A stretch of DNA of 59,996 bases, counting the filler. It is 4 parts of 4 records of this genome, joined end to end, with 100 filler letters (N's around TTAATTAATTAA, not from the genome) between each part and the next. Parts side by side here need not be neighbours in the genome. Positions count along the whole stretch, not along the records: positions 18,107 to 34,138 come from SRR22947725_3546; 3 more parts are not named here. One strand, written 5' to 3'. This document shows positions 12,536-38,825 of this stretch, piece after piece (within the stretch, counting starts at the first letter, position 1; each line of letters begins with the position of its first letter). A model generated the notes under the pieces. The model did no database searches. It worked only from the letters and a program-made list of their open reading frames with translations, and was not told where the DNA came from. Position numbers and translations under genes: made by a program.

Positions 12536-12540
12536 GGTTT

Positions 12541-14004: not shown

Positions 14005-14028
14005 GGCGCACCTCTCTTATTAATTGAG

Positions 14029-17221: not shown

Positions 17222-17223
17222 GG

Positions 17224-17820
17224 CTATTTTTTAAATCCGGCCGCTTTATCCATAGCCTCTACCTTACTTTCTTCTAATCCTGCTTCTAAAGCATCACTTC
17301 TAATGGTCTTATATTCATAAGGATAAATTGATTCCTTTCGAGTATGCAAAAAGTAGACGAGAAAGCCCCAAAGGTTCAAGAATACACATAGATAAAGCAC
17401 CCAAGGCCTTATCAAATCTGCAAAAAATATAAACATGATTATCTGTAATGTTGTCTCAGGTTTAGAAAAAAGCACTATAAAACCTAGTCTTCCTGGAAGA
17501 ATAATCATCCATAAAAGCATCATGATTAGTGCCAAACTTATAAATATAAGTTCTAACTCAAATCGAGTTACGGCTCCTTCCATTAGAGCATTTAGTGCTA
17601 CAAATCCTAGTAAAAAACATACTGATGCATGCATTTTATAACTAGTCACTTCTCGCATAGCGAGATAACTATTAATTTTTCCGTTTCTTAAATTCCAGGG
17701 CTTTTCTTTTGAAAATGAATCTAGAATTTCAAATATGCCGATGCCTAAATATAAGATTACCTCTATCCATAAAACAACTTTCAATAAAGTAGTTAATTCC
17801 AATAATTCATTTACTTCCAT
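17224..17820 (-). CDS. Hypothetical membrane protein
   Basis: 198-aa ORF with several TM helices, in operon with the PMT gene. Confidence 0.7.
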   Translation of the reverse strand: MEVNELLELTTLLKVVLWIEVILYLGIGIFEILDSFSKEKPWNLRNGKINSYLAMREVTSYKMHASVCFLLGFVALNALMEGAVTRFELELIFISLALIMMLLWMIILPGRLGFIVLFSKPETTLQIIMFIFFADLIRPWVLYLCVFLNLWGFLVYFLHTRKESIYPYEYKTIRSDALEAGLEESKVEAMDKAAGFKK

Positions 17821-17961
17821 GACTTCTTCTCTAATTAATCAGCCTACAGAATAACCTTATTAGACATACAAAAACACCCTCATGAGAGAGCACTTTTTTA
17901 AATGATATTTCCAGAATGAATAGCTATACTAAAAAATAAGAAAGTAATTATTGGAGAAAAA

Positions 17962-18006
17962 ATGCTAAAACAATTTATTTTTATCAGTATCCTCAGCGCT
18001 TTTATG
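17962..18006 (+). CDS. Partial ORF (signal-peptide-like MLKQFIFISILSAFM), cut by contig end
   Basis: GGAG RBS then ATG; runs into Ns. Confidence 0.5.
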
Positions 18007-18106
18007 NNNNNNNNNNNNNNNNNNNNNNNNNNNNNNNNNNNNNNNNNNNNTTAATTAATTAANNNNNNNNNNNNNNNNNNNNNNNNNNNNNNNNNNNNNN
18101 NNNNNN
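18007..18106. other. Artificial contig spacer
   Basis: 44 N + TTAATTAATTAA (stops in all frames) + 44 N. Confidence 0.98.
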
Positions 18107-18373
18107 AGAAATTTTTTCTAAAGTTATTTTTTTAACTTCTTTGCTTGGTCTATTTTCATTTTCATACAATGATAAAAGATCCCTACATTCGTCAATGCTA
18201 AAATTAAAACTTCTTGCTTTCCCAATAAATTTTAATTTCAACACATCTTCTTCTGTATAATTTCTATAACCAGTTTGACTATCTTGTTTTGGCTTAACTA
18301 AATCGATATTAGCATAATATCTTGTAGCTTTTACAGTTAAATCAGATAATTTTGAGGCTTTCCCAATATTCAT
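18107..18373 (-). CDS. cueR: Cu(I)-responsive MerR-family regulator CueR (3' truncated)
   Basis: MNIGKASKLS..RYY..GYRNY..ARSFNFSIDECRDLLSLY; divergent from the copper operon. Confidence 0.85.
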
Positions 18374-18383
18374 AATTTTTTTC

Positions 18384-18414
18384 TTTACCTTCCCCTTAGA
18401 GTAACCTTTATAAG
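18384..18414 (+). promoter_or_regulatory. MerR/CueR-type promoter with 19-bp spacer
   Basis: -35 TTTACC, 19-bp spacer, -10 TATAAG; contains the ACCTTCC half-site typical of CueR operators. Confidence 0.7.
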
Positions 18415-18433
18415 GTATAAATAGGAGATAATT

Positions 18434-18877
18434 GTGTCAATACTAAATACATTAAATATTAATTGGTTATGTATACACACCTGGTTACAAGCATCTAAGA
18501 ATACTTTATGGTGTTTATTAGGGTGTTGTATTGGTGATTTTGGAACAATAGGTTTTTTTCAATTTATGGAAATATCATGGCCAGTATCCTTAATAATGAC
18601 ACTAGCTATAGTAAACGGTATTATCACATCCATTATCCTTGAAACAATAATCTTATCAAAACAAATGTTATTTAAGTTAGCTTTTAAGACAGCAATAGGG
18701 ATGTCATTAGTATCGATGGTATCAATGGAAGCCGCTATGAATCTTACAGACTTTATATTGACGGGTGGAGCGATTTTAACTTGGTGGGTAATCCCTTTTA
18801 TGCTTTTTGCAGGATTTATTACTCCATTACCTTACAATTATTGGCGTTTAAAAGCGCTTGGAAAGGCTTGTCACTAA
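18434..18877 (+). CDS. DUF4396-family membrane protein
   Basis: TLWCLLGCCIGD, SMVSMEAAMN, PYNYW..GKACH. Confidence 0.8.
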   Translation: MSILNTLNINWLCIHTWLQASKNTLWCLLGCCIGDFGTIGFFQFMEISWPVSLIMTLAIVNGIITSIILETIILSKQMLFKLAFKTAIGMSLVSMVSMEAAMNLTDFILTGGAILTWWVIPFMLFAGFITPLPYNYWRLKALGKACH

Positions 18878-19666
18878 ATGAATTTATTTTATTACAAATT
18901 TATTCTTTCACAAACTTTTGCGCTTTTAATATCCTTATTTATTGGCTTACTGATTTCTTTAACATATTTTGGAAAAGTGTATGGAGATACAAAAATATTT
19001 AGTACACAAGAAACGTCAAAAATTAAAGAACTTATATTAGAAACTTTGTTAGAAAAACCTGAAGTTTTAATTGAAATGAGCCAGCTACTTAAGAAAAAAG
19101 AAGCACAAGCATCTCAACAAAAAGTTAAGTTAGTTATAAAAGAAAATAAAAATTTATTATTTAATAATGACAATGCGCCTGTTATTGGTAACAAAGATGG
19201 TAATGTAACTACAATTGAGTTTTTTGATTATAACTGTGTTTATTGTAAACGTGCCATAGACCCATTGAAAAAAATATTGGCAAAAGATAACAATATCCGT
19301 TTTGTTTTAAGAGAATGGCCAGTTTTGAATGAAGGGTCTATGTATTCGGCCAAGGCTGCCCTTGCTTCTCGTAAACAAGGACTATATGAGACTTTTCACT
19401 TCGCCTTAATGAATACCAAACGTGTGACAAAAAATTCAACACTGACGGTAGCAAGGAAGGTTGGATTAGATTTAGATAAATTAAAAAAAGATATGAAATC
19501 ACCAAAAATTGAACTTCATATAAATAACTCAAGGAAACTTGCGAGTGCTCTTGGTTTCTCTGGAACGCCCTCTTTTCTTATTGGTGAACAAACAGTTCCT
19601 GGTTTAATACCTTTAAAAGAGCTTGAGCGTTTAGTTAAAAAAGCAAGGTTAAATAAAAATGAGTAA
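18878..19666 (+). CDS. DsbA/Com1-like thioredoxin-fold protein (ScsC-like)
   Basis: EFFDYNCVYC and GTP motifs. Confidence 0.88.
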   Translation: MNLFYYKFILSQTFALLISLFIGLLISLTYFGKVYGDTKIFSTQETSKIKELILETLLEKPEVLIEMSQLLKKKEAQASQQKVKLVIKENKNLLFNNDNAPVIGNKDGNVTTIEFFDYNCVYCKRAIDPLKKILAKDNNIRFVLREWPVLNEGSMYSAKAALASRKQGLYETFHFALMNTKRVTKNSTLTVARKVGLDLDKLKKDMKSPKIELHINNSRKLASALGFSGTPSFLIGEQTVPGLIPLKELERLVKKARLNKNE

Positions 19667-20132
19667 AGTATATTATGCATCTTTGTTTAGTGCTGCTTTA
19701 GTTATTGGAACTTTAGTCTATTATTTAAATTCTCCTATCCAACCTGCTAATGCTTCAGTTTCGTTAAAACCTGAAGATAAATCTGTCATTTTATTAGGTA
19801 AGAATATCTATGCTCAAAACTGTGCATCATGCCATGGAGTCAACTTAGAAGGACAGAAGAACTGGATGTCAAGATTACCAAACGGAATGATGCCTGCCCC
19901 ACCGCATGATGTAACCGGTCATACTTGGCATCATTCTGATAATTACTTGTTTCTTATAACAAAGTATGGTGTTGAAGAAATTTTAGGTGAAAAATATCCA
20001 AATAATATGCCTGCATATAAAGATATCTTGACTGATGATGAAATAATTTCTGCTTTATCCTATATAAAGAGTACATGGCCGTCAAAAACAAAAAAAATCC
20101 ATGATGAAATTAATTTAAGATCTAATAAGTAA
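19659..20132 (+). CDS. Monoheme cytochrome c
   Basis: CASCHG, APPHDVTGHTWHH, MPAY. Confidence 0.9.
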   Translation: MSKVYYASLFSAALVIGTLVYYLNSPIQPANASVSLKPEDKSVILLGKNIYAQNCASCHGVNLEGQKNWMSRLPNGMMPAPPHDVTGHTWHHSDNYLFLITKYGVEEILGEKYPNNMPAYKDILTDDEIISALSYIKSTWPSKTKKIHDEINLRSNK

Positions 20133-20152
20133 TAAAGAATAAGGAATAAGGT

Positions 20153-20548
20153 ATGAATATAAAAATTATATTAATAGTGTTAATTTTCTTTCTAAAGAAC
20201 ACAGTTGCATTTGCTCATTCTCCTTTAAAAGTAGTTTCACCCAAGAATAATGAAATATTAAGTCAAGCACCTGAACAGATCACAATGATTTTTAAATCTG
20301 AAGCTAAACTTATCAAAATAACTTTAGAAAAACAAAAAAATACTAAGCAAGATTCAATGATTAGTAATTTCTTCTCTAAAGGTAATGGTGAAAATATTAA
20401 AATTAAAGAGAATGCCCTTATGCAAATATCCAAAAAGCACTCTATAGATTTGCCTAAACTTACTTCTGGGAAATATCTTTTTCATTGGCGTGCTATGAGT
20501 GAAGATGGACACGTTATAAAAGGAAATTTAAAATTTAATATAAAATGA
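20153..20548 (+). CDS. copC: Periplasmic copper-binding protein CopC
   Basis: AFAH mature N-terminal His; WRAMSEDGHV. Confidence 0.88.
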   Translation: MNIKIILIVLIFFLKNTVAFAHSPLKVVSPKNNEILSQAPEQITMIFKSEAKLIKITLEKQKNTKQDSMISNFFSKGNGENIKIKENALMQISKKHSIDLPKLTSGKYLFHWRAMSEDGHVIKGNLKFNIK

Positions 20549-20558
20549 GATATTTTTA

Positions 20559-21428
20559 ATGGAAATCTGGATATTATTAAATCCAATAATTAAGTTTTTT
20601 TTGTACATAGCAGTATTTGGTTCTGTCGGAACATTAGTATTTATTTCTCATTTTCATAAGCTTTTAAAGCCTGCACAATTAGACGATTGCTCTAAAATAA
20701 AAAATAAATTCACAAAAGTTGGTGTCTTAGTTTCTTTTATATCTATTTTATCTATACCTGGAAACATGTCAGGTGATCTTATGGGAGTTATAGATATTAA
20801 TATGATCAATTTATCATTTGATACTCTGGCTTTAAAATCTTCACTTCTTTTATTTACAGGCTTTATATTAATATATTATTTACCTACAAAATTTAAAAAG
20901 ATTTTTTTTTGGGGAAACACTACAGCTGTTTTTATAATTCTTTTTGCTTTTATTGCTATCGGCCATTCAACAAAAGGTGGAATTTTAACCCAAGCGTTAA
21001 TTATAATACACTTGATAGGTTTGTCTTACTGGATAGGGGCATTATTACCCTTGAAAGGAATGTGTAATATTCCCGACTTTAAGGAACTTAAAATCGTTGG
21101 TCATATGTTTGGCAAATATGCTATTTATTATATTTTGGCTTTATTAACTGCAGGTTTAATATTTTCATACATTTTAATCGGTGATATTTCTACATTATTT
21201 AATACTATGTATGGAAATGTTTTAATAATTAAATTTCTTTTTGCTATTTTGTTAATTTCACTTGGAGCCTTGAACAAGTTATTTTTAGTACCAAAATTAG
21301 ACATAAATAATGGAATAAGCATTAGAAAACTAAAAAGATCTATAAATGTAGAAATTATTATTGTTTTAATAATCTTTTTTTTAACCAGTTTACTTACAAC
21401 TTCCTTAACATTACCCATGAGTGATTAA
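20559..21428 (+). CDS. copD: Copper resistance inner-membrane protein CopD
   Basis: IGHS, HLIGLSYWIG, YGNVLIIK, GALNK. Confidence 0.85.
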   Translation: MEIWILLNPIIKFFLYIAVFGSVGTLVFISHFHKLLKPAQLDDCSKIKNKFTKVGVLVSFISILSIPGNMSGDLMGVIDINMINLSFDTLALKSSLLLFTGFILIYYLPTKFKKIFFWGNTTAVFIILFAFIAIGHSTKGGILTQALIIIHLIGLSYWIGALLPLKGMCNIPDFKELKIVGHMFGKYAIYYILALLTAGLIFSYILIGDISTLFNTMYGNVLIIKFLFAILLISLGALNKLFLVPKLDINNGISIRKLKRSINVEIIIVLIIFFLTSLLTTSLTLPMSD

Positions 21429-21429
21429 T

Positions 21430-22812
21430 ATGACTTCAAGAAGACAATTTCTTAAAATTTTACCGTATAGTTTTTTGTTAACTGCGTGTAAGCCTTTGGT
21501 ATTTGATACTAAAAAAGTAGTAAAATATGAGCTTGCAGCAAATAAATCGACATTCAATTTTAATGAAAAATTTAAAGCAAATTTGTTTTTGTACAATAAT
21601 GCGAACCCTGGACCATTATTAAAGGCAAATGTTGGAGATATTTTAAAAATTGATTTTAAAAATAACTTAGATCAACCTACAAGCATTCATTGGCACGGCA
21701 TTAAAAATATCAATAAAATGGATGGTGTTCCTTATTTAACACAAGACCCTGTTCAACCTGGTGAGACGTTTTCATATGAATTTCCAGTAAACCAATCGGG
21801 CACATATTGGTATCATGCACATTTTGAATCTTGGAAACAAGTCGCAAAGGGTTTGTATGGTCCGTTGGTTGTAAATGATAAAACTGATGATCTTATTGAA
21901 GATGATATTGTTATTTTAGCAGATGACTGGAGGTTAAACAAAAATTATCAAATTGATGAAAAATCTTTTGGTTCATTAATGGACTGGTCTCATGCAGGAA
22001 GAATAGGTAACTGGCTAACAATAAATGGAAAAAAATCACCACAATATTCAATTAAAGAAAATAGTATAGCAAGATTAAGGTTCATAAATGCTTCTAATGC
22101 TCGTATTTTAAAATTTGGATCAAGCTTAAAAAACAATAATATAATTACTATTGATGGGGTTGCAGTAAAACCAATGTTAGTAGAAGATTTTACTTTAGCA
22201 CCAGGACAAAGAATAGATTTACTTATAAACACTGTTGATCTTTTGAAAGTTGATTTCTTTGAAATTAGTCATACGAAACAGCTGAAAGCTTTTACTCTTA
22301 ACGTAACCAAGGCAGATAATAAAACGAAAAACATTACTAACATTAATTTTAAATCTAATTTGATTTTACCAAAACTAGATAATGCAAAAACTATTAACAT
22401 CCGAATGCAGGGTGGAGCAATGGGCAATCTCTCAAAAGCTAATCTTGATGGAGTTCAAAAAGATTTTCGTACCCTTGCAACTGAAGATAAAAAATTATGG
22501 GCCTTTAATAAAGAAATTGGAAGTTATGAATATTTACTTTCCACAGTTAAGCTAAACCAAGTTGTAATTTTAGATGTTTGGAATGATACTCGATGGCCTC
22601 ATAGTATGCATTTACACGGTAATCACTTTTTTGTGAAATCCAAAGAGTTCAAAGAAAATAATGATTATATTTTAAGAGATACTTATTTAATGCAGGCAGG
22701 TGAAAAAGCAAAGCTTATTTTTGTAGCTGATAATCCAGGCAAGTGGCTTTTTCATTGTCATATGCTAGAACATGCGGCCTCAGGCATGGTAAGCTATATT
22801 GATGTAGTATAA
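21430..22812 (+). CDS. Multicopper oxidase, Tat-exported probable lipoprotein
   Basis: HWHG, WYHAH, HSMHLHG, HCHMLEH copper motifs; MTSRRQFLK plus LTAC lipobox (ATG 21430 preferred over GTG 21421). Confidence 0.93.
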   Translation: MTSRRQFLKILPYSFLLTACKPLVFDTKKVVKYELAANKSTFNFNEKFKANLFLYNNANPGPLLKANVGDILKIDFKNNLDQPTSIHWHGIKNINKMDGVPYLTQDPVQPGETFSYEFPVNQSGTYWYHAHFESWKQVAKGLYGPLVVNDKTDDLIEDDIVILADDWRLNKNYQIDEKSFGSLMDWSHAGRIGNWLTINGKKSPQYSIKENSIARLRFINASNARILKFGSSLKNNNIITIDGVAVKPMLVEDFTLAPGQRIDLLINTVDLLKVDFFEISHTKQLKAFTLNVTKADNKTKNITNINFKSNLILPKLDNAKTINIRMQGGAMGNLSKANLDGVQKDFRTLATEDKKLWAFNKEIGSYEYLLSTVKLNQVVILDVWNDTRWPHSMHLHGNHFFVKSKEFKENNDYILRDTYLMQAGEKAKLIFVADNPGKWLFHCHMLEHAASGMVSYIDVV

Positions 22813-23022
22813 CACACTTAAAATATTTGTTGAAAAGCAGAAAATGTTTCAGGTTTTTTATATTAAAATAAATTTGTCTTTTTATTTATTCTAAGCATAT
22901 ATGAGTTTGTTTTTTAAAATAAACACATGTACGCTTTACAAGTAGAATGATCTTCAAAAACTTGTAATTTCTTCGCTCACATATAGAATGAGATTATTGA
23001 TATCTTTAATTGGGAGGTTAAT

Positions 23023-23853
23023 ATGTCACGTGTTTCATCTATAGATATTGGTTCAATTAAGGTTACTTCGTTGCTTGATGGCGAACTTGTTTTACCGGCT
23101 GAAGTTCTATTGAACTTAAAGGATGAAGATGCTCAAACTATTAGAGATAATACCGAAAATAAGCTTTCATCCTCTAACATAAATGCTTATCTTATTCAAA
23201 ATGGTGAACGTAACTTACTTGTTGATGCAGGGTGTAGAGAATTATTTGGTCCAACATGTGGTTTCATTAAAGATGCACTCGCTGAAGCTGGGGTATCTAC
23301 ACAACAAGTCACAGATGTATTTCTAACTCATCTACATCCAGACCACGTAGCTGGCACATTGAATACAGATGGTACGGCAGTTTTCAATAATGCTCAACTG
23401 CACCTTGTAGACATAGAGTACGACTTTTGGATAAAAGAAAATTTCGATGCCGTTGAAGTAAATGGTGCTGATTGGGCAAATTTAGCTCAGGCAGTTGTAA
23501 CTGCGTATAAAGATCGCCTAAATCTTTTATCACAAGGTAAAGAGATAATGCCTGGTGTTAACACTGTTGCTATACCGGGACATACTCCAGGTCACTCAGG
23601 GTTCAGAGTAGATAGTGGTAATGAAAACCTGATGCATCTTGGCGATATTTTACACTTACAAAATCTACAGCTCATAGACCCTAACGTTTCGACAGTGTTT
23701 GATATTGACTATGATACGGCTCTTTTATCACGTAAAAGAGTGTTAGACATGGTCAGTACTGATAAAAACTTATGTACAAGTGGACACTGGTTGTCTCCTA
23801 AGTTTGGTCATATTGAACGACATGGTCAAGGTTTTGCTGTGAGTTCAAAATAG
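23023..23853 (+). CDS. MBL-fold hydrolase (methyl-parathion hydrolase/AHL-lactonase-like)
   Basis: THLHPDH, GHTPGH, GDILH; GGGAGG RBS. Confidence 0.88.
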   Translation: MSRVSSIDIGSIKVTSLLDGELVLPAEVLLNLKDEDAQTIRDNTENKLSSSNINAYLIQNGERNLLVDAGCRELFGPTCGFIKDALAEAGVSTQQVTDVFLTHLHPDHVAGTLNTDGTAVFNNAQLHLVDIEYDFWIKENFDAVEVNGADWANLAQAVVTAYKDRLNLLSQGKEIMPGVNTVAIPGHTPGHSGFRVDSGNENLMHLGDILHLQNLQLIDPNVSTVFDIDYDTALLSRKRVLDMVSTDKNLCTSGHWLSPKFGHIERHGQGFAVSSK

Positions 23854-23979
23854 GGAAGCTAATAGTTATTCCATTTTTATAATCCGACCCTATAAGATTT
23901 TATAGAACTAAAAGTATTAAATCTAAAATTTGTCTAGTTTCAAAATGTTTTTTAAACTTAAAGATAAGGTTCTTAAACA

Positions 23980-24870
23980 ATGACTTCGCTTAACAAAACA
24001 CAACATGTATTCAAGGGAGTTTTATTTTTTATAACTGCAATTTTTTTTATATCTGTTGTAGACACTATATGTAAATTATTTACAAAAGAGCTTCATGCAA
24101 TACAGATTGTATGGGGTTATTTTTTGGGTATTAACCTTACACTATGGATCTTCTTTTTTTTGAAGGGCAAAAAACTCTCAAATTTAAAGACAACTGATAG
24201 ACCAATCCTTCAAATTCTACGCCCTGCTTTTTTAGTTTGTTCTATATCTAGTCTTTTTGTTGGTTTAACATATTTACCATTAGCGGAAGCTACAGCAATT
24301 GGGTTTGTGGCACCTCTGTTTATAACAGTCCTTTCTGTTCCTATTCTGAAAGAAAAAGTGGGTATTCATCGCTGGGCTGCAGTAGTAGTAGGATTAATAG
24401 GAGTTTTAATTATTATACGCCCTGGTAGTGATTTTTGGCATTTTATATCAATTATGCCTTTGGTAGGAGCCTTATTCTTTGCACTTTTTCAAATTTTGAC
24501 AAGATTACTATCTGGAACTGAAAAGACACATACAACTTTATTTTATACTGGCCTTGGAGGATTGTTTTGGTCTAGCTTAATTGTACCATTCGTTTGGGTT
24601 ATTCCCTCTCAGATTCATGTTTTAGTATTTTTGGCTACAGGTACTTTAGGTGCCCTGGCGCATTTGTGTATGATAAATGCTTTTGATTTTGCTGAAGCGT
24701 CCTTGTTGGCTCCTTATAATTACACTAAGTTATTATGGGTAGCTGTTTTTGGCTATTTGGTTTTTGGTGATATTCCAAGCTTTGAAATGTGGATAGGATC
24801 TGGAATTATAGCTTCAGCGGGTCTTTATGTTCTTTATAGAGAAAGAAAACATAGCATAGTGAAAGCATAA
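23980..24870 (+). CDS. DMT/EamA family transporter
   Basis: 10-TM pattern, LPLAEATAI..APLF, LKEKVG, IIRPG, LAPYNY. Confidence 0.9.
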   Translation: MTSLNKTQHVFKGVLFFITAIFFISVVDTICKLFTKELHAIQIVWGYFLGINLTLWIFFFLKGKKLSNLKTTDRPILQILRPAFLVCSISSLFVGLTYLPLAEATAIGFVAPLFITVLSVPILKEKVGIHRWAAVVVGLIGVLIIIRPGSDFWHFISIMPLVGALFFALFQILTRLLSGTEKTHTTLFYTGLGGLFWSSLIVPFVWVIPSQIHVLVFLATGTLGALAHLCMINAFDFAEASLLAPYNYTKLLWVAVFGYLVFGDIPSFEMWIGSGIIASAGLYVLYRERKHSIVKA

Positions 24871-24936
24871 TCAGTTGAAGTGATTAAATAGATAACCATT
24901 GTTAAATTTCATGGCGGCATAAAATTATTAGGATTT

Positions 24937-24976
24937 GGAGAGCACATGTGTTTATAGTGCTCTCCTTTAGATTTTT
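24937..24976 (+). terminator. Intrinsic terminator hairpin between the convergent DMT gene and the riboswitch-controlled peptide
   Basis: 9-bp stem GGAGAGCAC/GTGCTCTCC, 11-nt loop, followed by TTTAGATTTTT. Confidence 0.65.
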
Positions 24977-24983
24977 GTGTATA

Positions 24984-25100
24984 TTATTTACTTGATTTGC
25001 AAGTACACGACTTTGGTGTGCGATAATTCAAAATTTTATGAATTAATGCACGTTTACGTGCAAGCACAAACTTATTCCATTGATATGGTCTGTAAGTCAT
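24984..25100 (-). CDS. 38-aa basic small protein MTYRPYQWNKFVLARKRALIHKILNYRTPKSCTCKSSK downstream of glutamine riboswitches (not in ORF track)
   Basis: Strong RBS AGAGGAGGG just upstream; lies directly 3' of two aptamers; followed by a hairpin. Confidence 0.8.
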   Translation of the reverse strand: MTYRPYQWNKFVLARKRALIHKILNYRTPKSCTCKSSK

Positions 25101-25128
25101 TTTGTCACCCTCCTCTATTAAAGTTAGG

Positions 25129-25177
25129 TGCGTTCCTTCGGCATCATTACCTACTTCCGTCTCTTACGAGATGAACG
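25129..25177 (-). ncRNA. Glutamine-I (glnA motif) riboswitch aptamer 2
   Basis: CGUUC-A-UCUC[GUAA]GAGA-C-GGAAGUA-GGUA[AUGA]UGCC-GAAG-GAACG-CA: P1, GNRA-capped P2, E-loop AGUA/GAA and P3. Confidence 0.88.
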
Positions 25178-25184
25178 ATGATAA

Positions 25185-25235
25185 TGCGTTCCTTCAGCAT
25201 TGTTATATGCTTACTTCCGTCCTAAAGGATGAACG
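25185..25235 (-). ncRNA. Glutamine-I (glnA motif) riboswitch aptamer 1
   Basis: CGUUC-A-UCC[UUUA]GGA-C-GGAAGUA-AGCAU[AUAACA]AUGCU-GAAG-GAACG-CA; same core as aptamer 2 with different but paired stems. Confidence 0.88.
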
Positions 25236-25242
25236 TCCAATT

Positions 25243-25270
25243 ATAATAGCATTTAATTAACTTTAAGCAA
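25243..25270 (-). promoter_or_regulatory. Putative sigma70 promoter for the riboswitch leader
   Basis: TTGCTT-N16-TATTAT with extended -10 TG; predicted start about 1-2 nt before aptamer 1. Confidence 0.45.
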
Positions 25271-25382
25271 TAGAAAGAATAAATTCATTATATTACTTAG
25301 ATCTAAAATTAGGATTAAGCTCTAATACAATGTCTTTCTAATATTATTATTATATAATTAAGTCTTCTAGAACTAATATTTA

Positions 25383-25406
25383 TTTAGTTTACAATTTAGT
25401 CTACAA
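25383..25406. repeat. 12-bp tandem repeat TTTAGT(T/C)TACAA x2 (integrase arm-site-like)
   Basis: Near-identical copy at 31716-31736. Confidence 0.6.
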
Positions 25407-25443
25407 TAATCTTATTAGAAATTTAAACTTGAATAGGTATAAT

Positions 25444-26403
25444 ATGACAACCAATGTTGCTATAATTGGGTTAGGTATTATGGGTACTCGTATGTTAACA
25501 CATATGAGATTACATGAAGAATTCAATCCAGATTATTTGTGGGACCCAAACCCAATTGCTTGTGAAAATGCTATCAAACAAGATAGTAAATCTCTTATTA
25601 TGAAAAGTGCTGATGACGCAATAGAAAAGGCTGACTTAGTTTATTTAGCATGTCCACCTACCGTAAGGGAGGCATATGCCTTGAAAGTGGTTGAAATGGG
25701 CAAAGCTCTTTTACTTGAAAAACCATTTGGAATAAATACTGAAGATAGTAAAAATTTTATTAAAAAGCTTCAAAATTATGATGTTCCTATTGCGGTAAAT
25801 TTTACTCAAGCTGCGGGTGCTCCTTTGGCTGACTTGTTGGCAAGCAAAAATAAAGGCGAAATGGGAGAAATGCTAGGTGTTGATATCATAGTTACATATC
25901 CTTCTTGGCCTCGCGAGTGGCAAAAACAAGCTGATTGGCTTCGGTTTAAAAAAGAAGGAGGTATGACAAGAGAAGTAATATCTCATTTTATTTTTTTTAC
26001 CGAACGTGTTTTAGGACCTCTTAAAGTAAAGTGGGCCCATACTTCTTATCCCGCGGACCCTTCATCATGTGAAACTGATGTTCTTGCGAGATTAGAAACT
26101 GAAGATGGTTTGCCGGTCAATATATTAGCAAGTGTTGGTGGCATTCAACCAGACCGACAGGAATTTACAGTTAAAGGATCTAAACAAAGTAGAAAAATTG
26201 CAGAATTTCATAAAGACACAATATCTTATGGCGAAGATTTCATTCCTCTGAGGGAAGAATCTGAAGACCCTAGAGCAGTAAGCTTAAAGTCACAGCTTGA
26301 TGATTTAGTTCTTAAAATAAATCATAAACCCAATAGTTTGGCGACAATTGATGAGGCGTTTAGGGTACAAAAATTAGTAGAGGAAATATTGTCAAAAACT
26401 TAA
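25444..26403 (+). CDS. Gfo/Idh/MocA family oxidoreductase
   Basis: IIGLGIMG, LLEKP, GGMTREVISH; ATG 25444 preferred. Confidence 0.88.
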   Translation: MTTNVAIIGLGIMGTRMLTHMRLHEEFNPDYLWDPNPIACENAIKQDSKSLIMKSADDAIEKADLVYLACPPTVREAYALKVVEMGKALLLEKPFGINTEDSKNFIKKLQNYDVPIAVNFTQAAGAPLADLLASKNKGEMGEMLGVDIIVTYPSWPREWQKQADWLRFKKEGGMTREVISHFIFFTERVLGPLKVKWAHTSYPADPSSCETDVLARLETEDGLPVNILASVGGIQPDRQEFTVKGSKQSRKIAEFHKDTISYGEDFIPLREESEDPRAVSLKSQLDDLVLKINHKPNSLATIDEAFRVQKLVEEILSKT

Positions 26404-26436
26404 TAAGTTAAAACAGTTTGCAAATGAGGTTGATTA

Positions 26437-26664
26437 ATGGAACATGAAATGAAAGAAAGTCGTCCTAAATCATGGGATAAAACAAAACGTGTTTATGAGA
26501 TATCGTATCCTGATGGTAAAAAGGAAATATGGAAAGATGTTACTGCACGTGATTGTCTAACAAAGTATGAAGGCATGGATCCATATGGCAACGGATTAAA
26601 ATTAAGAGAAATAGTAGGAAAAGAATTACAATTAATAAAGGTAATGGATAGTGGCAAAAAATAA
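26437..26664 (+). CDS. Hypothetical protein (75 aa)
   Basis: GAGG RBS; plausible composition. Confidence 0.65.
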   Translation: MEHEMKESRPKSWDKTKRVYEISYPDGKKEIWKDVTARDCLTKYEGMDPYGNGLKLREIVGKELQLIKVMDSGKK

Positions 26665-26815
26665 CAATCAAAGACAAATAGAATTACTTAAAGTACTTGC
26701 TAAAGGTTGTAAGAAACATCCAGCCTATCGAGCCATAAGGAAAGCTACTGAACGGTGTGACGAGTGCGTTGTTGTTTGGAAAGCGAGAGTTGAGCTTAAT
26801 GCATTAGATAATTAA
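26651..26815 (+). CDS. 54-aa putative zinc-binding protein (CKKH...CDEC), not in ORF track
   Basis: GTG start overlapping the upstream ORF; MAKNNNQRQIELLKVLAKGCKKHPAYRAIRKATERCDECVVVWKARVELNALDN. Confidence 0.65.
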   Translation: MAKNNNQRQIELLKVLAKGCKKHPAYRAIRKATERCDECVVVWKARVELNALDN

Positions 26816-26823
26816 TAAAGTAA

Positions 26824-26918
26824 TGGCGGAGGGAGGGTCTGTCACAATAACCTTTAAGTGTCTGATTTTCATGCGCTTTATGAAATAACTTCAAATGTAC
26901 CCCACATAATACCCCACA
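26824..26918 (-). mobile_element. att-site remnant: tRNA-Ser-like 3' end plus arm-type direct repeats
   Basis: Minus strand CCCTCCCTCCGCCA (26824-26837) with no rest of a tRNA; TACCCCACA x2 at 12-bp period (26898-26918). Confidence 0.6.
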
Positions 26919-26925
26919 ATTATTA

Positions 26926-27330
26926 TTAAAATAATTTCAATGAATATCCCAATATAGTACCAAGAATAATAACAAAAAGGATCAATAGCATATTCATTTT
27001 CTTTAAAGATGACATGTGGTTATTCATTTTAATTTCCATTTTTGCGATGTCATTTTTTACCTGATTTAATTTGTTATCTTGTTTTTCTTGATTTTCATTT
27101 ATTACAGTAGTTGTATCATTTACAGATTTGTCTATTAATTTTCTTAGTTTATCGCTTTCATCTACAATTCTTAAAGCTGTAGCAGAACTGTTTTTTTCAA
27201 TATCTTCTGGTAATTTTGATAACTCTTTTGATATTTTTTTTAATTTTTCAATAGACCTTGAAACTTCAGCAACCTTTTTGCCATTTTCTTCTAGGTCAGA
27301 CAGTGTTTTCTCTGCTTGTGATAAATCCAT
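26926..27330 (-). CDS. Coiled-coil protein with C-terminal transmembrane anchor
   Basis: Heptad-rich K/E/L body; terminal hydrophobic helix LLILFVIILGTILGY. Confidence 0.75.
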   Translation of the reverse strand: MDLSQAEKTLSDLEENGKKVAEVSRSIEKLKKISKELSKLPEDIEKNSSATALRIVDESDKLRKLIDKSVNDTTTVINENQEKQDNKLNQVKNDIAKMEIKMNNHMSSLKKMNMLLILFVIILGTILGYSLKLF

Positions 27331-27344
27331 AATATACTCTTAAA

Positions 27345-30300
27345 CTAAAATACTTTCTGTAAACGTTTATTAAATAACTCAAGATATGTTATTGCAGAAT
27401 AATCATCTTGCAAATATTTATGTAATAAAATTAACTCTTTCGAGTTATCAAGATGAATTTCTATTGCTTCAGATAAAATGTTTTTTTGATCATGGTTTAA
27501 AATTTTTGCAAATTTTAATAAATTTATTAATGTTTTATTCCAAATTAAACTATCTTTTTTGGCCTCATCAATAAAGTCATTCAATCTGTTTCTACCATCC
27601 GGATCATCAAAGGTCTTTGTTATAAGTCTACAAATAGAGCTTAACAAATTCAACCAAGGATTACTTTGATAACTTTCTAAAAATCTTGCTAAAATAAAGG
27701 TGATTTCTTGTATTTTTTCTATAGGAATTAATGTTCCATCTTTAATTAATAAATCGTTAAGATTATTTGGCGCTTCAAGATAATTTGATTCAATGTATTT
27801 TTCTATATTATGTGTTTCATCATTTGATTTAAAATAAGCTTCAATTTTTCTCTTAAACTCTTTAGGTCCTGTGATTTCAAAATCTTTAGTATAATCATAT
27901 AAAGTTTTGAGAGATTGCCTTCTGTTATATAAAAAATGATCATTATTCCATTGTAAAAGATATCGTAAGATGTTTTTTCTTTGATCATCTTTTTTTAGCT
28001 TAAAAATTGAATTAATTTTATTCTTGTGTTTTTCTAATTCAGGTTCTGATTTTTCATAATTTTTTATGTGTTGAAATATATTCCCAGCCAATATTTTGTC
28101 ATTTAGATTTTCATAATAAATTTTATAAGTATTTTGAAAATAATCTGTAACTAACCAATCTTTAATTATACCAATTTGAAAAAGTCTATATAAATTAAGT
28201 TCGTTTTTTGCACGTAATTCTAATGGGGATACATTTTGAATAGTTAAAGTATGTAATAAATTCAAGACATCATTTAACTCATCATCTACTGTTTTTTTGT
28301 TATTTGTTAGTAAAAATAATTGATTTTTAAAGTCTCCTTTTTCAATTTTTTTACCCTCATCTCTATATTGTTTTAAGGTATTTATATCAGAGTTTTTAAA
28401 AAATATTCTATCTGGAATTCTTTCCTTTTCATCTTTAAATAAAATTATATTTTGAGCTTCTTTTTTATCTCGTCCAGTTCTTCCAGTTTCTTGATAAAGG
28501 GCCTCCATTGAAGATGGCATTCCATAGTGAAGAGAAAACCTAATATTTTTTTTATTAATTCCCATCCCGAATGATTTTGTTGCACACATGAGTTGTACAT
28601 CATTATTCTTGTACTCATTTTGAATTCTTCTTTTATAATTATTAAAGCTTTCTTCTTCTAATCTGGGCGTCCAATCATTAGGAATGCTTCCACAAAATAT
28701 ACCAGACTTAATATTTGGAAATTTGTTACGAATCTTTTGCTCAACATCAAAACAACCTAATTCTCCATTAACATGCATTGTAAATACAATACCGGCACTA
28801 ATATCTGACAAATTATGATCATTAATCATTTTGTTAATTGTAAGGTCTAAATTAAGATCTTTGTCTGGGGTTTTTATAATATTATAATTGAGTTCTGGCC
28901 TACTATTATGCATCCTAAAAATTACGTTTTCTTTTCTTATATTTAATTCTATTTTAATATTTTCCAAAACATTATTAGATGCTGTCGCAGTTAAAGAAAT
29001 AATTGGAACATTAGTTTTTAAAATTGTTACAATGGTATTAGCCAGGGCTAAATATGAAGGTCTGAAATCATGTCCCCATTCTGATAAACAATGGACCTCA
29101 TCAATTACGATATACGAGATTAAATTATTTTTGGTTAAATCTTTTACTAAGTCTCGAAACTTATCATTTTGGAATCTTTCGGGAGAAATAAATAAGAATT
29201 TTATTTCTCCTTTTCGAACTTTATCGTAAACAATGTTTTTTTGTGCTTGTGTTTGCTCTCCATAAACAAACTCACATCTATTTAAAAAACCATATCTACT
29301 AAGCTCATCTACATGATCATTCATGAGTGCTATAATAGGGCATACAACTATACTGCATCCTAGTTGAAATATAGAGGGAATTTGGAAGCATAAAGATTTG
29401 CCACCACCAGTAGGTAAAAGTCCTAGAGTGTTTTCTTGCTTTAAAACATTATCTATTATGTATGATTGACCTTCATTAAAAGAAGTATACCCAAACATTT
29501 GAAATAAAATTAGTTTTAAATTCTCAAATTTATGTTTTTCAAGAATATTTTCTATCTTTTTATTTTTTGATAATAGTGGCGAATGAAAATTAAAATCTAA
29601 ATAACTACGGTGTTCTTTTTCTAATTTGAAGTAATCTAGATAATAACTCTTTATCATATAATTTTTAGATATTATTTCATCAGGTCTTTGAAATAATTTC
29701 ATATCAAGATGAATTGCGTCTTTAGAGTTGGTGCCGTCTGAATATGTAATATTCACATTTGGTTTATTAAATTTTTCATCACATATTTTAGAAAAGGGAA
29801 GAAACCATTGATAGAAATCTTCAACTGCTAATGTAGACCAGTCAAATTGACATTTAAAATCAGCGTTAATATTAAATGACCATTCGTTATCATTTAAATT
29901 TAATTTCCCAACTTTAATTAATTCTATAATAAATATTTGAAATCTAATGATTGCTGTGCAAACAAATACTAAATTTTCTTTTTCATATGTTTTGTTTAGA
30001 AAGCTATCCTTATAATCATTGATACGATCTTGTAGTTTTAACTCATTTTTTATTTCATTGATTTTAAGAAAATAATCATTATCTCTAGATCTAATACTGT
30101 ACGTTGAAATTCTAATTGTTTTAATATTATATTTATCAAAAAGATTATCTCTGATTTTATCTAAATTCTCATTGTGTTGTTTGCCATCAATCTCAATTAT
30201 TAAGTTAGATTCTGGAATAAAAAAATCTACTCTTGTTTTAGGGTTTAGTTCTTTTAATTTTTTTAAATCTGGACAATACTCTGCTATTTCATATTCTGGA

Positions 30301-30662
30301 ATTGTCAAATTAGTAACAAAACCATATTCCCCTAAATCGTTTTGTAAATTATTAAAAAACAAGGTCGCAGGATTATCTGTTGGATCAATACTATTACCTA
30401 GAATTGTTTTTTGTGTCCATGTTTGTTTATGATTAGATATAAAGCATGGACTGTATGGTCTTTCTAGTTCTTCAGAAGAATAATATTTTCCAAGTGAGTC
30501 TTTCAAATAAAAAGAGAGTTTAGTAGGCATGCCACGTTTAATCATGTTTTCTGTGAGTAAAAGTGAAAATGGAACTTTATCTATTTTTTTATTCGAAAGA
30601 TTGTAAATACAAAAATTTAACTCTGTATCAAAAAACCCTGCTGTTATTTTTTTGTATTCCAT
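27345..30662 (-). CDS. RecQ-family helicase with N-terminal DUF559/Vsr-like endonuclease domain (1105 aa)
   Basis: RVDFFIP..LIIEIDGKQH..DKIRD nuclease motif; LPTGGGKSLCFQ, DEVH, EWGHDFRPSY, TAT, FGMGINK, QETGRTGRD. Confidence 0.88.
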   Translation of the reverse strand: MEYKKITAGFFDTELNFCIYNLSNKKIDKVPFSLLLTENMIKRGMPTKLSFYLKDSLGKYYSSEELERPYSPCFISNHKQTWTQKTILGNSIDPTDNPATLFFNNLQNDLGEYGFVTNLTIPEYEIAEYCPDLKKLKELNPKTRVDFFIPESNLIIEIDGKQHNENLDKIRDNLFDKYNIKTIRISTYSIRSRDNDYFLKINEIKNELKLQDRINDYKDSFLNKTYEKENLVFVCTAIIRFQIFIIELIKVGKLNLNDNEWSFNINADFKCQFDWSTLAVEDFYQWFLPFSKICDEKFNKPNVNITYSDGTNSKDAIHLDMKLFQRPDEIISKNYMIKSYYLDYFKLEKEHRSYLDFNFHSPLLSKNKKIENILEKHKFENLKLILFQMFGYTSFNEGQSYIIDNVLKQENTLGLLPTGGGKSLCFQIPSIFQLGCSIVVCPIIALMNDHVDELSRYGFLNRCEFVYGEQTQAQKNIVYDKVRKGEIKFLFISPERFQNDKFRDLVKDLTKNNLISYIVIDEVHCLSEWGHDFRPSYLALANTIVTILKTNVPIISLTATASNNVLENIKIELNIRKENVIFRMHNSRPELNYNIIKTPDKDLNLDLTINKMINDHNLSDISAGIVFTMHVNGELGCFDVEQKIRNKFPNIKSGIFCGSIPNDWTPRLEEESFNNYKRRIQNEYKNNDVQLMCATKSFGMGINKKNIRFSLHYGMPSSMEALYQETGRTGRDKKEAQNIILFKDEKERIPDRIFFKNSDINTLKQYRDEGKKIEKGDFKNQLFLLTNNKKTVDDELNDVLNLLHTLTIQNVSPLELRAKNELNLYRLFQIGIIKDWLVTDYFQNTYKIYYENLNDKILAGNIFQHIKNYEKSEPELEKHKNKINSIFKLKKDDQRKNILRYLLQWNNDHFLYNRRQSLKTLYDYTKDFEITGPKEFKRKIEAYFKSNDETHNIEKYIESNYLEAPNNLNDLLIKDGTLIPIEKIQEITFILARFLESYQSNPWLNLLSSICRLITKTFDDPDGRNRLNDFIDEAKKDSLIWNKTLINLLKFAKILNHDQKNILSEAIEIHLDNSKELILLHKYLQDDYSAITYLELFNKRLQKVF

Positions 30663-30764
30663 GCACTTATTCTTCCATTTTTAAATGTATGCGTAAATAA
30701 TTATGTTTTTAAAAAACCTTTTTTAAAACAATAAATAGCCTCAATATTTCTGTTAATTATAATT

Positions 30765-30962
30765 ATGAGTGCTAATTCAGATATAAAATGGATAGATCAA
30801 ATCTTTGATTACTGTGTTGATCTTCTTTTTGATGTGGCTGCAATTTTGGGCATTACATATGAGGAAATAAATGTCTGGTTATTTTGTATAATTTGGCCTT
30901 TGTTGAGTTTAATAATGTTTGTAGAAATTATAAGATTAAGATTAAAGCAAATTAACAAGTGA
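30765..30962 (+). CDS. Small membrane protein (65 aa)
   Basis: FDYCVDLL..GITYEEINVWLFCIIWP; one TM helix. Confidence 0.7.
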   Translation: MSANSDIKWIDQIFDYCVDLLFDVAAILGITYEEINVWLFCIIWPLLSLIMFVEIIRLRLKQINK

Positions 30963-30978
30963 AACAGTAAGGTCTAGA

Positions 30979-31656
30979 ATGTTTTCATTTTTATATAATA
31001 GACTTTATAAAAAGATATTTAGTGTTTTAGTAATAACCTTTATTGCTATCTTTTACATAGACGAAATTCCTTATCCCTTAATTTTAAATACCCCAAAATC
31101 TGAAGATATGAAGATATCTAATGAATGGAAAAATTTAAAATATCCTTGTTTTAAAGTAGAAACTCTTTCAGGAAATTTGTTATCTGATTATTCAGGATAT
31201 TTTAGTATATCTGATTATGAAAATTTCAGGCTAAATCCAGGCTTATATTTTGGAGACGAAATTCGAGATTACAAAGAAAAAGAGGTTTTAATTGGATATA
31301 GTCCTGTGATGTACTCACTGATTCAACCAATACATAAATGTATAAATAAAGAAATTAAAAACGCTAGTACTCATGATAACGTTTTTTTTATTCTAGGGGA
31401 ATTTAATACTAAGATATGTGCTGCACATGCTCCATATATTCAATCAAAATGTCAGAGTTCTTATATAGTACAGACCTGTAGTTTTTCTAAAACAGGTTCG
31501 ATGACTGGAATTAATCAATGTACAATTGGTTTGTTTGGATTGTTTAATTTAAAAGAAGTGGGATTAAGTATTGTACCACTTAAATATTTTGAGTTTTTCG
31601 AAGATGATAATGATGCTTTTAACTATATTTGGTTTAAAGAGAGAAAATTATCCTAA
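30979..31656 (+). CDS. Hypothetical Cys-containing protein with N-terminal anchor
   Basis: 225-aa ORF, hydrophobic N-terminus. Confidence 0.6.
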   Translation: MFSFLYNRLYKKIFSVLVITFIAIFYIDEIPYPLILNTPKSEDMKISNEWKNLKYPCFKVETLSGNLLSDYSGYFSISDYENFRLNPGLYFGDEIRDYKEKEVLIGYSPVMYSLIQPIHKCINKEIKNASTHDNVFFILGEFNTKICAAHAPYIQSKCQSSYIVQTCSFSKTGSMTGINQCTIGLFGLFNLKEVGLSIVPLKYFEFFEDDNDAFNYIWFKERKLS

Positions 31657-31715
31657 TGACTGAGAGGAACTCCTAACTTATATTGTATAACTATAGGAAT
31701 TTTACATTTTTTCTC

Positions 31716-31736
31716 AGTCTACAATTTAGTCCACAA
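31716..31736. repeat. Second copy of 12-bp-period AGTCTACAATTTAGTCCACAA motif
   Basis: Matches 25386-25406 with two mismatches. Confidence 0.6.
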
Positions 31737-31791
31737 ACTTGATATTTATTATATTAATATTTATAACTTAGGTCGGTAAGAAGGATGTACT

Positions 31792-33288
31792 TTGAATACT
31801 GTTATAGATAGTGGTGAATTTACTGACGACTTCATAGATTGTGCTAGATTTGTAAATAATTTCTTTTCTGAAAAAGGGAAGGATGTAATTAACTTCATCA
31901 GATTTGCAACTATTCCAACTCCAGTTCACACTTCTTTTAGAATAGGTAATCAACTCTTTTTCATTCACATTGTTGATCTTGACGACAACATGGAACAACC
32001 TGGCAGCATTGAAGGGTTTATCTCTATTTGTGAAAGGTTTCAATGCCTTGCTTGCCTTATACCAGTTCGTAAGAAAAATAATAAATGGACTATTGAAAAC
32101 TTAGATTGGGGACTAATAGACGCTAAAACAGGAGACGTCATTGACCCTTATGAACTTGTTAGTGACGAAAAGATTGTCATGTCTGATTATGAAATACACG
32201 AAATGGGTAATGACTATGTAAGATATCATATAATTACAAAGAACCTTGGTTATAAAGTCTCAAGTTTCATAATAGACCCTGATATAATACCATCAATTAT
32301 TTTTAATAAACCAAATGAAAAATGTTGTGTTTTAGTAAAAGTATCTTACGACCCTAACCCGTGGGTAAGACAAGAAGATTTTAAAGATGAATTAGAAAAC
32401 GTGAAGTCCAGTTTTCCTGATATGACAGTTTATTTTGCAGGTGTACATTTATTTGGACAAGAGCAAATGAAACAAAAAGATAACACTTTACCCTTATATA
32501 GAGGGCAAGGTTATTATCCTACTTTTAGGGGCTTAGAAACTTTTGACGATTTAGAGAATGTTAGAAAGTTTGACAAAGCTATTGAAGACGATGATTACAC
32601 AAATGCTTTCAAGTTACTTTTACCACTTGCTGAACAAGGGTATGAGCATGCTCAAAATAATATTGCAAATTTTTATGAGTATGGTCTGGGAACTAAGAAA
32701 GATATGAAATTAGCTTTTAAATGGTATCTTCGTTCTGCTGAAAGAGGCGCGTCTTATGGTCAAAATAATGTTGGGGTTTGCTATAAATTTGGCAAGGGAG
32801 TTGAAAAAAACCTTACAACTGCCTTTGAATGGTTTAAAAAAGCCGCAGACGAATCTAATCGTGCGTTATATAATCTAGCCCTTTGCTTTAGAGATGGTGA
32901 AGGAGTTGAACAAGATTATAGTGAAGCTATAAAAATTTTTAAGTCATTAATGGATAAAAATGATGCATCAGGTATTTGCGCTCTTGGAGTAATGTATTAC
33001 GAAGGAAAAGGAGTTCTAATAGATTATAAAGAAGCAGTTAGAATTACAAAAATAGCTATCAAGCAAAACGATAGTACCAGCCAAAGAAACCTTGGTGAAT
33101 TTTATGAATATGGACGCGGCGTTAAGCAAGATAATGTCAAAGCATTAATGTGGTATACGATTTCGCTAAAAAATGGGTGGGACGAAAGTAAAGAATTAAT
33201 AGAAAAATTAGCTGAAAAAATGTCACTAAATGATCTGGAAAAAGCTGAAAAACTAGCTAATGAATATTTAGCTAAACAAAAAAGTTAG
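31792..33288 (+). CDS. Sel1-like repeat protein with uncharacterised N-terminal domain
   Basis: About five SLR repeats (AQNNIANFYEYGLG, GQNNVGVCYKFGKGV, etc.) after about 250 aa of non-repeat sequence. Confidence 0.85.
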   Translation: MNTVIDSGEFTDDFIDCARFVNNFFSEKGKDVINFIRFATIPTPVHTSFRIGNQLFFIHIVDLDDNMEQPGSIEGFISICERFQCLACLIPVRKKNNKWTIENLDWGLIDAKTGDVIDPYELVSDEKIVMSDYEIHEMGNDYVRYHIITKNLGYKVSSFIIDPDIIPSIIFNKPNEKCCVLVKVSYDPNPWVRQEDFKDELENVKSSFPDMTVYFAGVHLFGQEQMKQKDNTLPLYRGQGYYPTFRGLETFDDLENVRKFDKAIEDDDYTNAFKLLLPLAEQGYEHAQNNIANFYEYGLGTKKDMKLAFKWYLRSAERGASYGQNNVGVCYKFGKGVEKNLTTAFEWFKKAADESNRALYNLALCFRDGEGVEQDYSEAIKIFKSLMDKNDASGICALGVMYYEGKGVLIDYKEAVRITKIAIKQNDSTSQRNLGEFYEYGRGVKQDNVKALMWYTISLKNGWDESKELIEKLAEKMSLNDLEKAEKLANEYLAKQKS

Positions 33289-33734: not shown

Positions 33735-33848
33735 GTCACTATCCTTTAATATTATATTAATTTTTTCTATTTCATTATGACACTACTCATCATAAATAAA
33801 AGTTTTATGCTACTATAAATTTTTAATAGTATTTAATGAATTTTAAAA

Positions 33849-34138: not shown

Positions 34139-34238
34139 NNNNNNNNNNNNNNNNNNNNNNNNNNNNNNNNNNNNNNNNNNNNTTAATTAATTAANNNNNN
34201 NNNNNNNNNNNNNNNNNNNNNNNNNNNNNNNNNNNNNN
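34139..34238. other. Artificial contig spacer
   Basis: Same 100-nt N/TTAATTAATTAA linker. Confidence 0.98.
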
Positions 34239-36115: not shown

Positions 36116-36119
36116 ATAA

Positions 36120-38804: not shown

Positions 38805-38825
38805 AAATTGGTTTAAATTATATTA

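Follow-up and report, generated by a model that had tools for sequence, protein, structure and literature searches.

Does a tandem pair of glutamine riboswitches really occur in a heterotrophic marine bacterium, and, if so, which gene would it control? According to passages of Klahn et al. 2018 (PMC6212724), glutamine riboswitches are confined to the genomes of cyanobacteria, and the sources of the metagenomic copies located beside nitrogen genes were unknown. The locus considered here lies within a window of 59,996 bases (the whole stretch of DNA analysed), which consists of four contigs: A (1–18006), B (18107–34138), C (34239–53158), and a fourth at 53259–59996. The N stretches between them (18007–18106, 34139–34238, and 53159–53258) each contain a pair of 44-N runs, which makes six runs in all. 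The cassette is carried by contig B, where a first-pass annotation had placed two glnA-type (glutamine-I) aptamers with shared cores on the minus strand at 25129–25235 and had proposed an alphaproteobacterial host.

When the whole window was scanned with cmscan against Rfam 15 at gathering thresholds, two matches to RF01739 (Glutamine-I) were obtained, both on the minus strand; the third and last Rfam match in the window was a tRNA (40654–40726). Aptamer 1, the 5′ copy, occupies 25183–25237 (56.3 bits, E 9.3e-10), and aptamer 2, the 3′ copy, occupies 25127–25179 (61.3 bits, E 3.9e-11); each covers positions 1–53 of the 53-position model, and both scores lie well above the gathering score of 35. 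The proposed pair falls inside these two matches and its family assignment was confirmed, and the E-values place the observation well beyond chance. The joining sequences CGUUCA, ACGGAAGUA, and GAAGGAACGCA can be read in the raw sequence of both aptamers, and the cmscan alignments, taken together with the sequence, contain a three-stem junction (P1, P2, and P3) with the joining sequences CGUUCA, ACGGAAGUA, and GAAGGAACGC. As had been proposed, the stems differ between the copies yet still pair in the cmscan alignments: P2 is UCC/GGA in one aptamer and UCUC/GAGA in the other, whereas P3 is AGC(AU)/(AU)GCU in one and GG(UA)/(UG)CC in the other. The two aptamers are closely spaced, with 3 nt between the Rfam matches, 7 nt from the conserved GCA to the next CGUUCA, and 9 nt between the P1 helices. 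By covariance-model score, both aptamers are full members of RF01739, and they are predicted to bind glutamine. The minimum free energy (MFE) structure of the whole leader computed with RNAfold (z −2.02) did not reproduce the aptamer folds, but recovered the Shine–Dalgarno (SD) hairpin.

The host of this DNA was identified from the genes around the cassette. The gene for a Gfo/Idh/MocA oxidoreductase (25429–26403, plus strand, assigned by Pfam), which is divergent from the cassette, encodes a protein 99% identical to the copy in the closed chromosome of Candidatus Levibacter sp. Uisw_134_01 (NZ_CP159808.1); species-representative genomes yielded three such loci in total, the other two, with 81% and 80% identity, belonging to uncultured SAR116 single-cell assemblies. 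In a blastn comparison, positions 18107–26837 of the window were collinear with the Levibacter chromosome at 98.26% identity over 8736 nt. At the protein level, 13 of the 17 queried window proteins, from a truncated MerR-type gene to a 54-codon ORF, matched the Levibacter locus (L127) at 91–100%, and a 14th, a helicase, had only a distant match there (23%). Levibacter carries the same aptamer pair at the same place, with identical Rfam scores. Whole-genome searches found no other RF01739 copy in Levibacter and none in the two SAR116 assemblies that share the Gfo gene. The NCBI taxonomy assigns Levibacter to the Puniceispirillales in the Alphaproteobacteria, and passages of its naming paper describe a cultured Arctic isolate from a low-GC SAR116 lineage with 31.4% GC (PMC12421898). 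Near-identity to a closed chromosome bearing the same pair excludes a cyanobacterium or a phage as the host, and the alphaproteobacterial placement thus stands.

The other contigs have different affinities. Contig C was 100% identical to a contig of another genome (G001), whereas contig A matched neither G001 nor Levibacter above about 65–84%, in short stretches. Both A and C aligned with Levibacter in short stretches only (68–91% identity), indicating that the window is a mixed bin. Such a mixture could be taken to favour the view that the cassette contig comes from a cyanobacterium or cyanophage and was binned with a heterotroph by mistake. That view is nevertheless extremely improbable, given the collinearity of the contig with the chromosome of a cultured SAR116 isolate (described as such in passages of PMC12421898), and it is already refuted unless the public Levibacter chromosome is itself misassembled. 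No phage record matched the cassette contig, nor did it have any match in G001, and only chance-sized matches were found in the genus of G001.

Upstream of the cassette, the Levibacter-like contig contains a metal-handling cluster (18107–22812) with a truncated MerR-type regulator, DUF4396, thioredoxin-like, cytochrome c-like, CopC-like, and CopD-like proteins, and a multicopper oxidase; the Pfam check covered DUF4396 and the oxidase, whose companions were named by reading the translations. The DUF4396 gene matches Levibacter in two overlapping pieces, suggesting a frame difference. On the other side, collinearity ends at 26837, exactly at a Levibacter tRNA gene (L127, 11399–11487) that the window lacks at this point. 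Past 26837, the window holds different island content, including a DEAD/Helicase_C protein of 1105 aa with a DUF559 domain (27345–30662), and the region looks like a tRNA-side variable island.

Within the cassette, the tandem aptamers occupy the leader of a 38-codon ORF (24984–25100, minus strand; from the ORF list, with 45 distinct homologues aligned) that has no Pfam match and encodes a basic peptide, which we refer to as the MTYRPY family. Its ATG lies 26 nt past aptamer 2 and 8 nt past the SD sequence GGAGG (25113–25109). The SD region (25106–25113, minus strand) is overlapped by GGGUG (25110–25106), the 3′ arm of the sequestering helix discussed below. A candidate promoter on the minus strand (25243–25270) was read by eye as TTGCTT (25270–25265), a 16-nt spacer, and TATTAT (25248–25243). 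It would start the transcript at approximately the first base of aptamer 1, which is a weak inference; a consensus scan for promoters and terminators produced no usable entry for the cassette, and it missed this promoter because the −35 hexamer matches at only three of six positions. Downstream, between the peptide ORF and the convergent EamA/DMT transporter gene (23980–24870, plus strand; Pfam EamA, E 4e-21; 96% identical in Levibacter), a repeat search found a perfect 9-bp inverted repeat, GGAGAGCAC/GTGCTCTCC, whose arms are 11 nt apart (24937–24965). This repeat is probably a terminator hairpin shared by the two genes, a function that we can only infer because the terminator scan missed it.

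To collect homologues of the peptide, public viral and metagenome collections were scanned for an aptamer 3′ end followed within 15–45 nt by codons for MTYRPY. The scan yielded 19 viral and 88 metagenome stretches; with the window and the Levibacter locus, these amount to 109 records and 45 distinct complete peptides of 31–39 residues. Residues W8, R15, A18, H21, L24, and R27 are invariant across the 45 peptides, as are the first six residues, which were fixed by the search pattern. Over codons 7–27 of 47 distinct coding sequences, variation was highest at third positions (208, vs 133 and 131 at positions 1 and 2), and the codon differences comprised 5145 synonymous and 5350 nonsynonymous changes. 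Both of the other frames are interrupted by stops in every one of the 47. By these codon statistics, the 38-codon ORF behaves as a translated gene under purifying selection. AlphaFold2 predicted one helix, at residues 6–27, with a mean pLDDT of 72.

No distant relatives of the family emerged: a profile search of 1.84 billion representative proteins returned only seven clusters (31–56 residues), all from the same peptide family. The family had no match in Pfam or PHROG and none among PDB sequences at E up to 10; for the peptide itself, there was no usable match in the protein Atlas, and tblastn against phage records found nothing. A relation to DUF4278 (PF14105), the family of the cyanobacterial inhibitor IF17, was considered and rejected, since none of the 45 members matched that domain at E up to 10 and an hhalign comparison with a DUF4278 peptide encoded on a viral contig gave a probability of 3%. 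As a positive control, two YRG peptides located behind the same type of tandem switch matched DUF4278 with E-values of 3e-9 and 1e-7. A relation to a second family of small peptides (49–56 aa, “NPFYP”) was likewise rejected (hhalign probability 0.2%).

RNA libraries from three studies yielded contigs that align with the ORF and aptamer 2 over 191–241 nt with zero mismatches (X1, 24955–25145; X2, 24972–25165; X8, 24981–25221); in runs X1 and X2, positions 24917–24947 have no such cover. Such contigs do not reveal the strand, the ends, or the level of a transcript, and DNA may be present in RNA libraries; the matches are consistent with transcription of the cassette but do not prove it. Other X1 and X2 contigs that share the aptamer core at window positions 25129–25139 run into the leaders of other peptide families, for example one with AAAGGAGATGACATGAC, so that several cassettes co-occur in the same metatranscriptomes.

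The distribution of RF01739 was then compared at three taxonomic levels, with Levibacter itself counted at each. The family was found in 15 of 151 sampled genomes of the order of Levibacter, 13 of which had two copies, vs 2 of 151 in a class-wide sample and 1 of 151 in a phylum-wide sample. Loci parsed by script showed an MTYRPY-family peptide behind two aptamers in seven further genomes of the order, and the locus of an eighth (L260, genome G186) had a distant peptide homologue. Among the 14 other loci of the order, five (L247–L251) share a distinct linker, unlike that of the peptide-type leaders. In two of these, L248 and L249, the script read an ammonium-transporter-like ORF after the tandem aptamers; Pfam confirmed it in L249 only, where the pair (1436–1551) is directly upstream of an ammonium transporter gene (68–1405; Ammonium_transp, E 8e-98). 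Two further loci differ in form. In another alphaproteobacterium (L261, genome G260), a single RF01739 match (1501–1551) lies upstream of a gene for a circularly permuted ATP-grasp protein (56–1462), and in genome G068 (L001, 1501–1600), a match of 47.5 bits spans 100 nt for the 53-position model, implying a large insertion in one stem.

The same architecture is frequent in viral DNA. An exact-pattern scan for two aptamers in series returned 115 stretches from a viral collection, of which 112 tandem matches were parsed; in 107 of these, an SD-like site and an ORF of 27–65 codons followed within 80 nt, and the other five ran off the contig. Glutamine aptamers followed by a tiny basic peptide are thus a common architecture, in which IF17-like peptides are a minority. 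At least six unrelated families of basic peptides, 27–65 residues long, occur behind these viral aptamers (L012–L126). The largest consists of 46–56 residues ending in NPFYP or NPWY, with 38 distinct sequences, and the three members scanned had no Pfam match; the others are MTMWT (10), MTYRPY, two YRG peptides belonging to Pfam DUF4278 (the IF17 family), and a few more.

These observations bear on whether the cassette belongs to the host or came with a virus. Peptide-bearing SAR116 loci share only the cassette itself, about 170–325 nt at 77–88% identity, and their flanks fall into at least five unrelated groups, so the cassette behaves as a portable unit. MTYRPY-family loci occur in viral contigs (in L111, PHROGs typed the neighbours as a DnaB-like helicase, 2OG-Fe(II) oxygenases, and a thioredoxin-fold protein) and also in cellular-looking contexts with varied neighbours; the flanks in the window are not among the 22 largest neighbour clusters of these loci. 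It might be argued that the cassette arrived recently as a phage moron and plays no part in host physiology, in view of the 19 viral stretches that encode close peptide homologues behind the same leader, the small size of the unit shared between different flanks, and the absence of the cassette from the two SAR116 assemblies with the same Gfo gene. We consider this unlikely, because the cassette has no phage genes beside it either in the window or in the Levibacter chromosome, phage records gave no match to the contig, the peptide family recurs behind two aptamers in the seven further genomes of the order (and, as a distant homologue, in G186), and exact-match RNA-library contigs exist. The preferred reading remains a chromosomal SAR116 cassette.

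How would the aptamers act on the peptide gene? Immediately after P1 of aptamer 2, an anti-SD arm, CACCU (25126–25130, minus strand, starting at the C after P1), is complementary to 25106–25110, and the resulting hairpin is present in both the MFE and the centroid structures from RNAfold. Across 65 distinct leaders drawn from all peptide families, this 5-bp helix is paired in 325 of 325 cells, compared with 34–62% in slid controls, in which the partner was moved by 1–3 columns. There are 33 compensatory cells at two pairs (22 at one, CG to UA or AU, and 11 at the other, CG to UA). The observed pairing, the compensatory-cell count, and the covariation score were each reached by 0 of 500 shuffles, controls that, here and for the second helix described below, overstate the support, because the helices were derived from the same and related sequences on which the pairs were then counted. 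Even so qualified, the compensatory changes would be hard to explain otherwise.

The closest known counterpart is the leader of gifB, which encodes IF17 in Synechocystis sp. PCC 6803. According to passages of Klahn et al. (PMC6212724), the gifB aptamer is required for IF17 synthesis and glutamine enhances expression; those authors proposed that the C after P1, which they equate with the ligand-dependent linchpin C, pairs together with its neighbours with the ribosome binding site, and that the ligand melts this helix. Both leaders belong to RF01739, and in both, the post-P1 C and the nucleotides next to it form a helix with the ribosome binding site ahead of a gene for a small basic protein, with translation predicted to be switched on by glutamine (compared with the gifB leader as presented in parts of PMC6212724). 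The leader described here differs from that of gifB in its SAR116 alphaproteobacterial host, in its two aptamers where gifB has one, in a peptide that is not of the DUF4278 type, and in a host that has a classical GlnE and PII system. By this analogy, glutamine bound to aptamer 2 would pull the post-P1 C into the aptamer core, melting the anti-SD helix; ribosomes could then start, and the peptide would be made at high glutamine. Conservation of the anti-SD helix leads us to predict a translational ON switch, the direction being carried over from one cyanobacterial example.

The opposite direction, in which glutamine would repress the peptide, has two points in its favour. The same pair precedes amtB-like ORFs in related SAR116 genomes, and amtB would be expected to be repressed when nitrogen is plentiful; moreover, Klahn et al. 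themselves state, in a passage of their report, that the mode of action of gifB is unclear (PMC6212724). However, the amtB-type leaders carry a different linker, and the post-P1 C helix sequesters the SD sequence in all 65 of the 65 leaders, matching the architecture of the ON-acting gifB as set out in passages of PMC6212724. An OFF-acting switch is therefore improbable in our judgment, and we retain the ON direction for the peptide-type leaders.

The presence of two aptamers raises the further question of whether they act together. Starting at the C 3′ of its P1, the tail of aptamer 1 and the linker contain CAUUAUC (25180–25186, minus strand), the proposed 5′ arm of a relay helix, which is complementary to GGUAAUG (25145–25151, minus strand), the proposed 3′ arm. 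Because GGUAAUG is the 5′ strand of P3 of aptamer 2 with its loop, the relay pairing and P3 are mutually exclusive. With only 9 nt between the P1 helices, there is no separate expression platform for aptamer 1; in this interval, the scan gave no terminator-like site and the sequence contains no second ribosome site. In the proposed mechanism, the tail of unliganded aptamer 1 would pair with the 5′ side of P3, so that aptamer 2 would stay unfolded; aptamer 2 could fold only once aptamer 1 had bound glutamine, and such a two-ligand relay would sharpen the response.

A 7-bp helix of the relay type was found in 48 of 82 distinct tandem units. Over 49 distinct units, 82.8% of 285 cells were paired, vs 79.0% in shuffles and 25–60% in slid controls, and 17 compensatory cells occurred at two pairs, a count reached by 0 of 500 shuffles. 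One class of linkers (CCGAAAT and similar sequences) allows only 2–3 bp and lacks the relay helix. The comparison of sequences lends moderate support to a relay in which aptamer 1 would have to bind before aptamer 2 folds.

The main competitor is that the two aptamers act independently, in a pseudo-cooperative or redundant manner, and that the relay complementarity is functionless inherited sequence. Tandem glutamine-I riboswitches have been catalogued as 157 doublets and four triplets in the review of Sherlock et al. 2022, of which we cite the relevant passages (PMC9481103). The present pair resembles the catalogued doublets in that two same-class aptamers follow one another ahead of a single ORF, and the review files glutamine doublets under independent, pseudo-cooperative systems (according to passages of PMC9481103); here, by contrast, aptamer 1 lacks a platform and has a tail with complementarity to P3 of aptamer 2. 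The pseudo-cooperative type implies that each riboswitch has its own platform, which is not the arrangement found. Independence would also fit the small difference in relay pairing between the real units and the shuffles, the linker classes without a relay, and the fact that a single aptamer serves many leaders of the same peptide family: among 78 distinct MTYRPY-family leaders, two aptamer cores were found in 29 and one in 44, and the remaining five were cut by the contig end. On the other side are the 9-nt spacing of the P1 helices, the lack of a terminator or ribosome site belonging to aptamer 1, and the 17 compensatory cells at two positions together with the low pairing in slid controls. 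We regard independent action as a serious contender, with somewhat less than an even chance of being correct, and continue to treat the relay as a candidate.

If the relay is right, the leader would be like the tandem glycine riboswitch in joining two like aptamers to one platform and in giving a steeper response, but it differs from that system in fold and ligand and is not of the same family. Cooperativity in the tandem glycine riboswitch comes from tertiary contacts between the aptamers, not from a stem-sequestering tail. If true, the arrangement in which unliganded aptamer 1 keeps aptamer 2 unfolded would give this class a kind of cooperativity not previously described for it.

Taken together, the locus is likely to be a chromosomal SAR116 cassette in which a weak promoter, two aptamers, a sequestered SD sequence, a gene for a basic peptide of 38 codons, and a hairpin would form a glutamine-ON unit, with the relay as a candidate element. 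The function of the peptide is a more speculative matter. The peptide is predicted to be made at high glutamine, and the same sensor precedes amtB-like genes in the order, which together suggest that it might damp nitrogen assimilation. The same guess follows from the cyanobacterial sensor, which controls a small basic inhibitor of glutamine synthetase, given that the MTYRPY peptide is predicted to be a basic helix with invariant arginines. In IF7, arginines contact glutamine synthetase. Damping of nitrogen assimilation in the manner of IF7 and IF17 in cyanobacteria is our best guess, although we give it well below an even chance, and a direct action on glutamine synthetase is less likely again. 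In Levibacter, glnA is preceded by a PII gene, and there are a GlnE homologue and two further PII genes (three PII genes in total); with glnA, glnE, and PII present, there is no obvious need for a peptide inhibitor of glutamine synthetase. The lack of any detectable sequence relation between the peptide and DUF4278 likewise weighs against such a role. The most far-reaching reading, in which the micropeptide would be a glutamine-induced nitrogen brake analogous in function, but not related in sequence, to IF7/IF17, portable among SAR116, other marine bacteria, and phages, and governed by relay-wired aptamers, is improbable as a whole.

Some elements of this picture are already known, namely tandem glutamine-I copies and copies outside cyanobacteria. 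RF01739 has been reported in phages of OM43 and SAR11 (Methylophilales phage Melnitz and Pelagibacter phage Mosig; PMC9004378), and a passage of PMC12379486 notes it in SAR86. The present locus is like those of Melnitz and Mosig in that RF01739 occurs outside cyanobacteria in marine low-GC systems; in the phages, however, the riboswitch lies inside the ssrA region (PMC9004378), whereas the present copies are chromosomal and lie ahead of a gene for a peptide. Melnitz is also the only phage isolate with DNA similarity to the cassette (79% over 72 nt, in the aptamer region). We found no literature linking a glutamine riboswitch to SAR116: the riboswitch passages of PMC12379486 concern SAR86 and Prochlorococcus (its supplementary tables lay outside the search), the text of a SAR116 pangenome paper contains neither “riboswitch” nor “glutamine”, and both words are absent from the Levibacter naming paper (PMC12421898).

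What is new is that a cultured alphaproteobacterial SAR116 isolate carries genuine tandem copies on its closed chromosome and that RF01739 recurs in SAR116, before amtB-like ORFs or the MTYRPY peptide. To this are added an undescribed peptide family that also occurs in phages and is a candidate for nitrogen regulation, a conserved anti-SD helix counted across peptide families, and a candidate relay helix. The finding adds a culturable, non-photosynthetic marine bacterium to the hosts of a sensor that has been examined chiefly in cyanobacteria, and Levibacter may offer a tractable heterotroph in which to study RNA-based glutamine sensing beside the classical PII/GlnE system.
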